From NCBI RefSeq assembly GCF_001677475.2, contig NZ_CP015229.1: DNA of 64,000 nucleotides. The stretch is one strand, 5' to 3'. Each line of letters begins with the position of its first letter. The stretch's first letter is position 1. Below are positions 62,394 to 64,000 of the stretch, piece after piece. The DNA is from Escherichia coli. GTDB taxonomy: Bacteria; Pseudomonadota; Gammaproteobacteria; Enterobacterales; Enterobacteriaceae. The translations under genes were made by a program, and so were the position numbers. The notes below the pieces were generated by a model. It ran no database searches. It worked only from the letters and a program-made list of their open reading frames with translations, and was not told the origin of the DNA.

Positions 62394-64000
62394 GTGAGCG
62401 ATATTGTTTACCTGAGAATAATCGGTGAGAAGCAGGGCGATATTTCTTCAGGCTGTGGGACGTATGCGTCGGTTGGTAATCGCTGGCAGGTTGGCCATGA
62501 AGATGAAATTTTTGCCTTTGCACTCACCAACGCCATTACCAGTACTGGTAATGGCGTTAATCTACAGGGGCTACAATTTTGCAAACTCATTGATAAAAGC
62601 TCACCGCTACTGTCTAATGCCATCAATCAGAATGAGCGGTTATTTATTGAAATCGATTTGTATCGTATAAATAAAAGCGGGCGCTGGGAACGGTATTATT
62701 ATATTCAGCTAAGAAATGCTTCATTAACTGCTATTCATGTAAACATTTCTGACAATAATCTTCCTACCGAATGTGTAAATGTTAATTATGACTACATATT
62801 ATGCAAACATCTAATAGCCAATACGGAATTTGACTGGTTGGCCTTTCCTGCTGGCTATAATAGCTTATTTATTCCACCTAAAAACCCACCTGCCAGTAAT
62901 CTTAAGCCTGAGCCGCTACCAGTAGTTAACCTTCCACTCTCTTCACCAGCGGTTAACCCGGTCTATGCCAAATCCTGTCTGAAGGAGAAGGGATGTACAG
63001 ATGCTGGAACGGCAGAAGAACCCGCTGAAAACTTCGGTCAAGTAGCGATTTTTGCTCAGCCAGTGGTTGATGACTGCTGTGGATACCACCATCCCGAGGC
63101 TAACGATGTCGGGCAACCCACAGAAGCTCAAACCATGCTACTGTTTCCGGGGAGTGTGTTGGCGGCTCAAATATGGGGAAAATGGTCGCTCAGTGGCATA
63201 CTCAGTGCAACCCGCGGCTCTTACATCGGTGCGTTGGCATCTGCTTTGTATATTCCCTCTGCGGGCGAGGGCAGTGCTCGCGTGCCCGGACGTGATGAGT
63301 TCTGGTATGAGGAAGAACTGCGGCAGAAAGCACTAGCAGGCAGTACCGCCACCACCCGGGTACGTTTTTTCTGGGGAACTGACATTCACGGCAAGCCTCA
63401 GGTGTATGGTGTTCATACGGGTGAAGGTACGCCGTATGAAAACGTCCGCGTGGCGAACATGCAGTGGAACGAGCAGACGCAGCGTTATGAATTTACCCCC
63501 GCTCACGATGTCGATGGCCCCCTGATTACCTGGACGCCGGAAAATCCGGAACATGGGAATGTTCCGGGCCATACCGGTAACGACAGGCCGCCGCTGGATC
63601 AGCCCACCATTCTGGTGACGCCGATTCCGGACGGTACAGATACCTATACCACGCCGCCATTCCCGGTTCCTGATCCGAAAGAATTCAACGATTATATTCT
63701 GGTTTTTCCGGCGGGATCCGGTATTAAGCCCATCTATGTTTACCTGAAGGAGGATCCGCGAAAGCTGCCTGGTGTTGTAACAGGGCGCGGCGTCCCGCTT
63801 TCATCAGGAACTCGCTGGCTGGATATGTCGGTATCCAATAACGGCAACGGCGCACCAATCCCGGCGCATATTGCTGATAAATTGCGCGGACGGGAGTTTA
63901 AAACCTTTGATGAGTTTCGCGAGGCGCTGTGGCTGGAGGTGAGTCAGGATCCGGAGTTGATAGCGCAGTTTTCAAGTGGTAACCAAGCACGTATAAAACA
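62394..64000 (+). CDS. T6SS Hcp-domain protein fused to a C-terminal pyocin-S/colicin-type DNase toxin (extended-toxin Hcp); 3' end truncated by the window
   Basis: Probable GTG start; open frame of at least 535 codons to the window end. N-terminal ~150 aa show Hcp hallmarks (VYLRIIGEKQGD…GHEDEIFAF…KLIDKSSPLLSNA…LRNASLTAIHV). Pro-rich linker. C-terminus GVVTGRGVPLSSGTRWLDMSVSNNGNGAPIPAHIADKLRGREFKTFDEFREALWLEVSQDPEL resembles the start of the colicin E9 / pyocin S DNase domain. Not in the ORF track because no stop occurs inside the window. Confidence 0.8.
   Translation, partial: MSDIVYLRIIGEKQGDISSGCGTYASVGNRWQVGHEDEIFAFALTNAITSTGNGVNLQGLQFCKLIDKSSPLLSNAINQNERLFIEIDLYRINKSGRWERYYYIQLRNASLTAIHVNISDNNLPTECVNVNYDYILCKHLIANTEFDWLAFPAGYNSLFIPPKNPPASNLKPEPLPVVNLPLSSPAVNPVYAKSCLKEKGCTDAGTAEEPAENFGQVAIFAQPVVDDCCGYHHPEANDVGQPTEAQTMLLFPGSVLAAQIWGKWSLSGILSATRGSYIGALASALYIPSAGEGSARVPGRDEFWYEEELRQKALAGSTATTRVRFFWGTDIHGKPQVYGVHTGEGTPYENVRVANMQWNEQTQRYEFTPAHDVDGPLITWTPENPEHGNVPGHTGNDRPPLDQPTILVTPIPDGTDTYTTPPFPVPDPKEFNDYILVFPAGSGIKPIYVYLKEDPRKLPGVVTGRGVPLSSGTRWLDMSVSNNGNGAPIPAHIADKLRGREFKTFDEFREALWLEVSQDPELIAQFSSGNQARIK

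Follow-up and report, generated by a model that had tools for sequence, protein, structure and literature searches.

Does an abrupt change of base composition inside a chimeric toxin gene record the recent joining of a toxin to a carrier, and can the toxin still be exchanged at that point? The question is raised by the last open reading frame (ORF) of a 64,000-nt stretch of Escherichia coli DNA (contig NZ_CP015229.1, assembly GCF_001677475.2), the whole of which is called the window hereafter. A sequence-only reading had described this ORF as an AT-rich Hcp-coding part followed by a GC-rich pyocin-like and DNase-like part, and had proposed that domain shuffling had produced it. Our analysis identified the gene as usp, encoding a protein of four modules. 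Its mosaic structure very probably reflects domain shuffling that took place long ago in a polymorphic toxin family, current diversification in E. coli being confined to the tip of the deoxyribonuclease (DNase) and to the associated immunity cassette.

Identity of the gene

A single ORF opens at GTG 62394 on the plus strand, on which all features of the gene described below lie, and runs without a stop codon to position 64000. It is truncated by the end of the window, which contains 535 of its 593 codons (about the 5' nine-tenths of the gene) and leaves 58 beyond, the total length being taken from full-length alleles. The gene is usp (uropathogenic-specific protein; also Hcp-ET3-4, UTI89_C0121), carried by PAIusp, a small island inserted between aroP and pdhR. 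This name is given because of the aroP-pdhR locus, the order of the Hcp, Pyocin_S and DNase domains, the near-identical annotated copies and the placement in the literature: usp and imu1-3 have been positioned between aroP and pdhR, and Hcp, Pyocin_S and colicin nuclease domains have been described in Usp (PMC7142922). PMC6730261, which summarises Ma et al. 2017, equates Hcp-ET3-4 with UTI89_C0121 and gives it three immunity genes.

The gene aroP (60497-61870, minus strand) is divergent from usp and is preceded in the window by nadC, ampD and ampE; pdhR flanks the island in every locus fetched. In related loci, 97-99% identical, the gene is annotated as tssD (1782 nt, 593 aa) and is followed by bacteriocin immunity proteins, short HNH fragments and pdhR. 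Immunity genes of the imu/PF01320 type, outside the window, were present in two to four copies in every related locus examined. The HNH catalytic motif (HH...N...H...H, residues ~566-591) is also located outside the window and is intact in strain A16 and relatives. The chimeric toxin is already known, described and partly characterised, and is not a new one; diverse toxins fused to Hcp have been published as Hcp-ET, the name for Hcp proteins extended at their C-terminus by a toxin (Ma et al. 2017, as related in PMC6730261; also PMC12466380).

A GC-rich block inside an AT-rich island

The contrast between the AT-rich Hcp part and the GC-rich part that follows it was confirmed, at the coordinates where it had been described. 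The Hcp part (codons 1-165, 62394-62888) has a GC content of 0.394 and a GC content at third codon positions (GC3) of 0.364, as against 0.548 and 0.542 for the mid part, from codon 190 to 519 (62961-63950). The linker between them (62889-62960) displays values of 0.528 and 0.375. The maximum-likelihood change-point computed over all bases fell at 62885, with a log-likelihood ratio (LLR) of 15.9. The GC3 change-point was found at codon 227 (63072, LLR 9.1), about 37 codons past the protein-homology boundary (codon ~190), an offset that is within sampling noise given the small number of codons.

Chance as the cause of this break was ruled out by two backgrounds. Among the 36 other ORFs of at least 250 aa in the window, the top change-point LLR was 7.4 for all bases and 6.7 for GC3, and both GC and GC3 of the Hcp part undercut those of all 36 (minima 0.455 and 0.436, both for leuO). 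The Hcp part likewise had a poorer synonymous-codon fit (-0.112) than any of the 142 backbone windows, each 165 codons long, with which it was compared (minimum -0.033).

Two qualifications concern the GC-rich part. The backbone-like codon usage attributed to it holds for GC and GC3, but is only marginally true of the codon fit, which at 0.025 is among the very lowest of the backbone values (0.001-0.295, median 0.174). In addition, GC richness extends to ~63950, i.e. over the first half of the DNase, but not to the tip of this domain: the last ~75 DNase codons, from residue ~519 (~63950), show a GC of 0.40 and a GC3 of 0.31 in near-identical alleles. Past the tip, GC stays between 0.33 and 0.39 through the immunity genes and orphan fragments up to pdhR in the related loci. 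The composition is three-part: a GC-rich block of ~1 kb inside an AT-rich island, instead of two halves of which one is AT-rich and the other backbone-like.

Four modules and their boundaries

The protein is a specialised type VI secretion system (T6SS) tube subunit made of four modules: Hcp (residues 1-165), a linker rich in Pro (166-189), a pre-toxin block that is mobile (190-451) and a colicin-E-type HNH DNase (452-593). The Hcp (TssD) carrier (62394-62888) matched PF05638 at residues 28-139 (E 8.7e-13), passed TIGR03344 (TssD) over residues 1-146 (E 3e-36; 124.7 bits vs a cut-off of 58.9) and matched the PDB Hcp structure 6a2v (E 2e-15). The linker (62889-62960), FIPPKNPPASNLKPEPLPVVNLPLSSPAVNP, delimited by translation, by alignment and by the P0100, P0140 and L007 sequences, has 10 Pro within about 30 residues and sits at the transition, as had been noticed from the sequence. 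Pfam recognised nothing in the first part of the mobile block (residues 190-308, 62961-63317), in which two Cys motifs, CLKEKGC and DDCCGY, and a hydrophobic stretch rich in Gly, Ala and Ser are present. This part is conserved in VgrG-, PAAR- and Hcp-linked relatives with 62-80% identity. The Pyocin_S domain (residues 309-450, 63318-63743) follows (PF06958, E 1.9e-40; PDB 3mfb, E 1e-17). The DNase, residues 460-535 of which are in the window (63771-64000), matched PF21431 at 460-591 (E 3e-42) in a full-length allele; its first 76 residues lie inside the window and the rest was read in alleles 98-99% identical. It matched the structures of colicin E9, colicin E7 and pyocin AP41 (E ~1e-30), and also the klebicin G DNase.

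Architectures of relatives were obtained by an exhaustive search of 1.84 billion representative proteins, followed by Pfam scans and alignment. This search replaced a word-indexed protein search performed with the Hcp domain alone, which gave nearly only contig-end fragments. Ten proteins (370-663 aa) matched usp only over residues 1 to 160-171, with 42-67% identity, and the point where they cease aligning is that of the compositional change-point at 62885. Their C-terminal ends were HNH, DUF6883, Tle1-like phospholipase, Tox-REase-3, or none known to Pfam. Other relatives matched only from residue ~183-235 on, and their N-termini were PAAR (P0144-P0147) or bacteriocin-type. The GC-rich block begins exactly at PVYAKSCLKEKGC (residue ~190, 62961), and occurs as well in fusions with VgrG (Klebsiella) and with PAAR. 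In Klebsiella pneumoniae (locus L007), one ORF of 1186 aa consists of VgrG and then the mid-block, which starts exactly at TPVYAKSCLKEKDC; in another Klebsiella protein (P0100), VgrG and the mid-block are followed, after 'PIYVYL', by a colicin-E3-type rRNase in place of the DNase. The linker itself is carrier-specific, as homology to the proteins sharing only Hcp stops before it and homology to the VgrG and PAAR fusions begins after it. Because the compositional edges coincide with homology edges to differently built proteins, these alignments support domain shuffling at the family level, by which the Hcp carrier would have received several ends and the mid-block several carriers.

Module composition was compared among E. 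coli, Salmonella, a full-length homologue with 61% identity (P0143), the PAAR fusion and the Klebsiella VgrG fusion. Each module kept its GC content whatever its partner or host: 0.37-0.40 for the Hcp carrier, 0.53-0.56 for the mid-block and 0.33-0.41 for the DNase tip and immunity gene. The Klebsiella VgrG part itself has a GC of 0.60 and a GC3 of 0.71, and the mid-block attached to it is still at 0.53-0.56. Along its three parts, P0143 displayed values of 0.38, 0.54 and 0.38. The Salmonella enterica copy, located at the same aroP-pdhR site, ran from 0.33-0.40 to 0.49-0.61 and back to 0.31-0.41. A single family of full-length homologues of uniform composition had been named as an outcome that would speak against shuffling; this outcome was obtained in part, as full-length homologues do exist (Salmonella, P0143), although their composition is not uniform. 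A possible difference in nearest lineage between the two halves was ruled out, the nearest named relatives outside E. coli being from Salmonella for both (72% for the Hcp part, 79% for the mid part).

Several features of these relatives were also recorded. Six of the ten Hcp-X relatives had a C-terminal part without Pfam recognition, and most other Hcp-X proteins of this subfamily (P0148-P0158) share another post-Hcp adaptor, LNSKGVGRLLAAGGIYNGNIEGFRETAEKLGGDA, then a hydrophobic stretch and a variable end. The Klebsiella VgrG-Pyocin_S-DNase locus (L007 279-1728) adjoins Thoeris genes (ThsB_TIR, ThsA_Macro) and a Phage_AlpA gene, a neighbourhood that suggests a mobile island. In Salmonella enterica serovar Sanjuan (L008 5528-6000), in-frame stops break the Hcp part, which is pseudogenised; the mid-block, the DNase and two immunity genes are open.

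Stability of the Hcp junction in E. coli

The distribution of the two halves was analysed among 5426 complete E. coli genomes. The mid part was present in 1058 of them, at one locus and with at least 95% identity, and 1057 of these had an intact Hcp part. The segment 61850-64000 was matched over at least 80% of its length in 1057 of the 5426 genomes, with ~97-99% identity among the matches listed. In the one genome with the mid part but no intact Hcp part, SCU-172 (L006 2874-5358), an IS5-family element removed most of the Hcp part and an 'S-type pyocin domain' pseudogene remains. Because both halves co-occur at one locus, and because Salmonella and P0143 share the pattern, the Hcp/mid junction is fixed and the mosaic is old and stable, rather than the product of recent or currently active exchange there. 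The idea of a C-terminal toxin exchangeable on its Hcp carrier at this junction is not supported for present-day E. coli, since the halves are found together in 1057 of 1058 genomes and the unit that is swapped begins only at ~63950. Domain shuffling is thus retained for the family, where several ends occur on Hcp and several carriers bear the mid-block, but not as a recent or active event at the Hcp/mid junction.

Local variations were also noticed along the locus. Between 62779 and 62912, the window allele is of the APEC O1/CFT073 type at 8 sites, the rest of the gene being of the A16/PS10-3 type; this segment looks like a gene-conversion tract of ~130 nt at the border of Hcp and linker. In CFT073 (L004 7263-8476), an IS3 element lies between the last immunity gene and pdhR.

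A variable tip within the DNase domain

In an alignment of six E. coli alleles, each 60 nt held at most 6 differences before ~63950 and 13-25 from there on. This polymorphic, AT-rich tip (63950-64000 in the window, GC down to 0.40) opens inside the DNase domain at EVSQDPELIAQF / 'EVSQDPEL...' (residue ~519), which is also the position of the second GC drop. Only the last ~75 DNase residues and the immunity gene are variable among E. coli alleles. In colicin DNases, the corresponding tip region holds the immunity-protein contact and the HNH motif (colicin E9).

The tip belongs to a cassette of ~695 nt (DNase tip, immunity gene, spacer), found in three or four tandem copies in the loci of other strains (repeat families D1-D3 in L001, with copy 1 at L001 11014). 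The first copy, the beginning of which is in the window (63861-64000), spans the start of the variation at ~63950. Downstream, decaying orphan tip fragments of 62-79 aa match PF21431 positions 54-112. The unit open to exchange in E. coli today is the DNase tip with its immunity gene, from ~63950, of which ~50 nt are in the window. A conserved body, a hypervariable immunity-linked tip and downstream orphan tip/immunity pairs homologous to usp, as known for polymorphic toxins, were all found.

Proposed mode of action

Most likely, the Pyocin_S domain, which makes up the second half of the mobile block, serves for inner-membrane translocation (IMT) and is not a second toxin. Pyocin G needs PF06958, the IMT domain, for its FtsH-dependent import, and the same domain is present in 97.6% of the Colicin-DNase T6SS effectors in SecReT6 (PMC9040868). 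What the Hcp-ET3-4 description calls a 'Pyocin S3 toxin' is better understood as a translocation domain, which leaves one toxin only.

As suggested by its domains and by the literature, the Hcp domain would load Usp into the T6SS tube and deliver it to the periplasm of a neighbour. Passage of the DNase through the inner membrane would then be ensured by the IMT domain, as happens with nuclease bacteriocins, and the DNase would degrade target DNA, the producer presumably being protected by the immunity proteins encoded downstream. Antibacterial activity of Hcp-ET3-4, neutralised by three immunity proteins, is reported in PMC6730261, and T6SS-dependent secretion and killing rest on Ma et al. 2017 as summarised there.

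Alternative explanations

A recent recombination in this strain or lineage, joining a backbone-like E. coli toxin half to a foreign AT-rich Hcp gene, would account for the sharp change-point and for mid-part GC and GC3 values within the backbone range, and the short allele-conversion patch at 62779-62912 lies near the junction. However, both halves are contiguous, with at least 95% identity, in all usp-positive genomes bar the IS5-truncated copy, the same pattern is found in Salmonella and in the 61%-identical homologue, the GC of the mid-block is unchanged on VgrG or PAAR in other hosts, and its codon usage fits the backbone about as poorly as that of the poorest backbone windows. This scenario is largely refuted and appears highly improbable. 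The composition could otherwise be a by-product of protein content, an Asn/Ile/Lys-rich beta-barrel being followed by a Pro/Gly/Ala-rich extension, together with selection for AT-rich DNA at the two island ends, e.g. to have a toxic gene silenced by H-NS. Indeed, amino-acid content alone would give the Hcp part a GC of 0.473 and the mid part one of 0.563, usp is repressed by H-NS (PMC7142922), and the AT-rich Hcp and tip modules persist at saturating divergence. We nevertheless consider this explanation doubtful, in view of a GC3 gap of 0.18 and a strong gap in synonymous-codon fit, both beyond protein content, and of boundaries that match homology breakpoints to differently built proteins. 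Usp might also be mainly a secreted genotoxin directed against mammalian host cells, its Hcp domain being a relic. It has been reported as a genotoxin for mammalian cells (PMC7142922), and the bacterial target may not be the sole one. The Hcp domain is intact and conserved, however, the immunity genes and the IMT domain fit a bacterial target, and an antibacterial activity neutralised by three immunity proteins is reported in PMC6730261; a primarily mammalian target thus seems improbable.

Old domain shuffling of a T6SS toxin remains the preferred explanation, and the genotoxin report is one of several points that weigh against it. Amino-acid content explains ~58% of the observed GC gap, the remainder being codon choice. 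The dependence on IMT and FtsH is still to be shown for T6SS effectors (PMC9040868), and no T6SS genes were found within the 64-kb window. The HNH motif and the immunity genes lie beyond the end of the window. Finally, GC3 is module-specific even at 61% protein identity, a divergence at which ancestry from donor lineages alone should have faded, and selection or continued flux may be maintaining it. An active maintenance of the three-part composition, as opposed to its inheritance, can be put forward only tentatively: GC3 is ~0.31-0.37 for the carrier and the tip/immunity part and ~0.45-0.57 for the IMT block, in hosts of 50-57% GC. If it were true, one possible reason would be selection for AT-rich, H-NS-bound DNA flanking a neutral core and silencing a self-toxic gene; alternatively, tips and carriers would circulate in a separate AT-rich gene pool and be re-imported by recombination at fixed junctions (~165-189, ~452 and ~519).

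Upstream region, start codon and neighbouring genes

The intergenic region between aroP and usp (61871-62393) is AT-rich (GC 0.315). According to PMC7142922, usp is transcribed from aroP's divergent P3 promoter, with activation by TyrR and repression of usp by H-NS, to which DNA of this region is bound. A consensus scan of 61700-62500 gave 5 promoter-like sites vs 2.9 expected, and no terminator, a result too weak to place the promoter, the assignment of which rests on PMC7142922. A private divergent patch of the window allele (62019-62122) displays 12 differences, including two single-base deletions, from five other usp alleles, and no complete E. coli genome exceeds 95.6% identity over 61980-62160. 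The patch falls where promoter and H-NS elements are said to be located.

The start region (62381-62402) reads GGAATG-AAATAAAGTG-AGCGAT in E. coli vs GGAATGAGCGAT in Salmonella (L008 5528-5539), with a 10-nt insertion in E. coli. This comparison indicates that the insertion turned an ancestral ATG start into a two-codon mini-ORF, ATG AAA TAA (62384-62392, plus strand), usp now beginning at GTG 62394. The mini-ORF is preceded by AAGGA (62370-62374), the arrangement is common to the six E. coli alleles compared, among which no indel was observed here, and the mini-ORF could throttle or couple translation of the toxin.

Elsewhere in the window, leuO (24719-25747, plus strand; identified by NF007063, E 2e-172) was the lowest-GC long ORF among the 36 others (GC 0.455, GC3 0.436). 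It is known as an AT-rich gene.

Comparison with known systems

Apart from a minor mosaic of the window allele (62779-62912) and its private upstream patch (62019-62122), nothing essential distinguishes the gene from Usp/Hcp-ET3-4 of PAIusp. The aroP-pdhR locus, the order Hcp, Pyocin_S, colicin DNase and the downstream imu-type immunity genes are the same, and at the DNA level the gene shares 97-99% identity with the copies annotated in APEC O1, CFT073, ST131 and further strains. As usp is a known marker of phylogroup B2/F extraintestinal E. coli, the correct label is the practical outcome. Three small points go beyond the sources consulted: the GC-rich block in an AT-rich island, with edges at the carrier junction and at an exchange point inside the DNase domain; the composition that each module keeps on Hcp, VgrG or PAAR carriers and across hosts; and the interpretation of Pyocin_S as serving translocation. 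They leave current understanding unchanged, but module edges could guide the choice of cut sites for engineering or typing such effectors.

Among the other Hcp-ET effectors of Enterobacteriaceae, Hcp-ET1 (HNH) and Hcp-ET2 (Tle1/DUF2235) have the same type of carrier, with 52-67% identity through 'CKHLIANTEF..YN.LF(I/V)P', and a toxin after it at the C-terminus. They differ from usp by the adaptor GRLLAAGGIYNGN after the carrier, by other toxins and by the absence of Pyocin_S. Conversely, the VgrG- or PAAR-linked Pyocin_S-DNase effectors (L007; P0144-P0147) and Vibrio VPA1263 share the block from PVYAKSCLKEKGC to the DNase, with 57-66% identity, an immunity gene downstream and a GC drop at the DNase tip or over the whole DNase, but their carrier is VgrG, PAAR or MIX instead of Hcp. 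Equivalence of usp with VPA1263 was ruled out, NF047924 scoring 215 bits vs a cut-off of 900.

Nuclease colicins and S-type pyocins (colicin E9/E7, pyocin S2/AP41, klebicin G) have in common with usp an IMT domain, an HNH DNase and a PF01320 immunity protein (PDB E 1e-27 to 1e-39). In usp, Hcp replaces the N-terminus that ensures receptor binding and Tol/Ton translocation, and the gene is chromosomal, not on a colicin plasmid. No lysis gene is annotated in the island of related loci, and Pfam found no further N-terminal domain. Among the features that define nuclease bacteriocins, IMT, nuclease and immunity were found (the immunity gene in related loci), but receptor binding and outer-membrane translocation were not. 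At the inner membrane, Usp behaves as a bacteriocin does, without belonging to the nuclease bacteriocins.

A last parallel can be drawn with contact-dependent inhibition (cdiA-CT/cdiI) and Rhs orphan arrays, which also display a conserved body, a variable tip with cognate immunity, and promoterless homologous tip fragments with immunity genes. The orphan tips of usp differ from theirs in being short (62-79 aa) and decaying. The swap point differs as well: it is not at VENN or PxxxxDPxGL but inside the toxin domain, at residue ~519 of a protein whose DNase starts at ~452-460.

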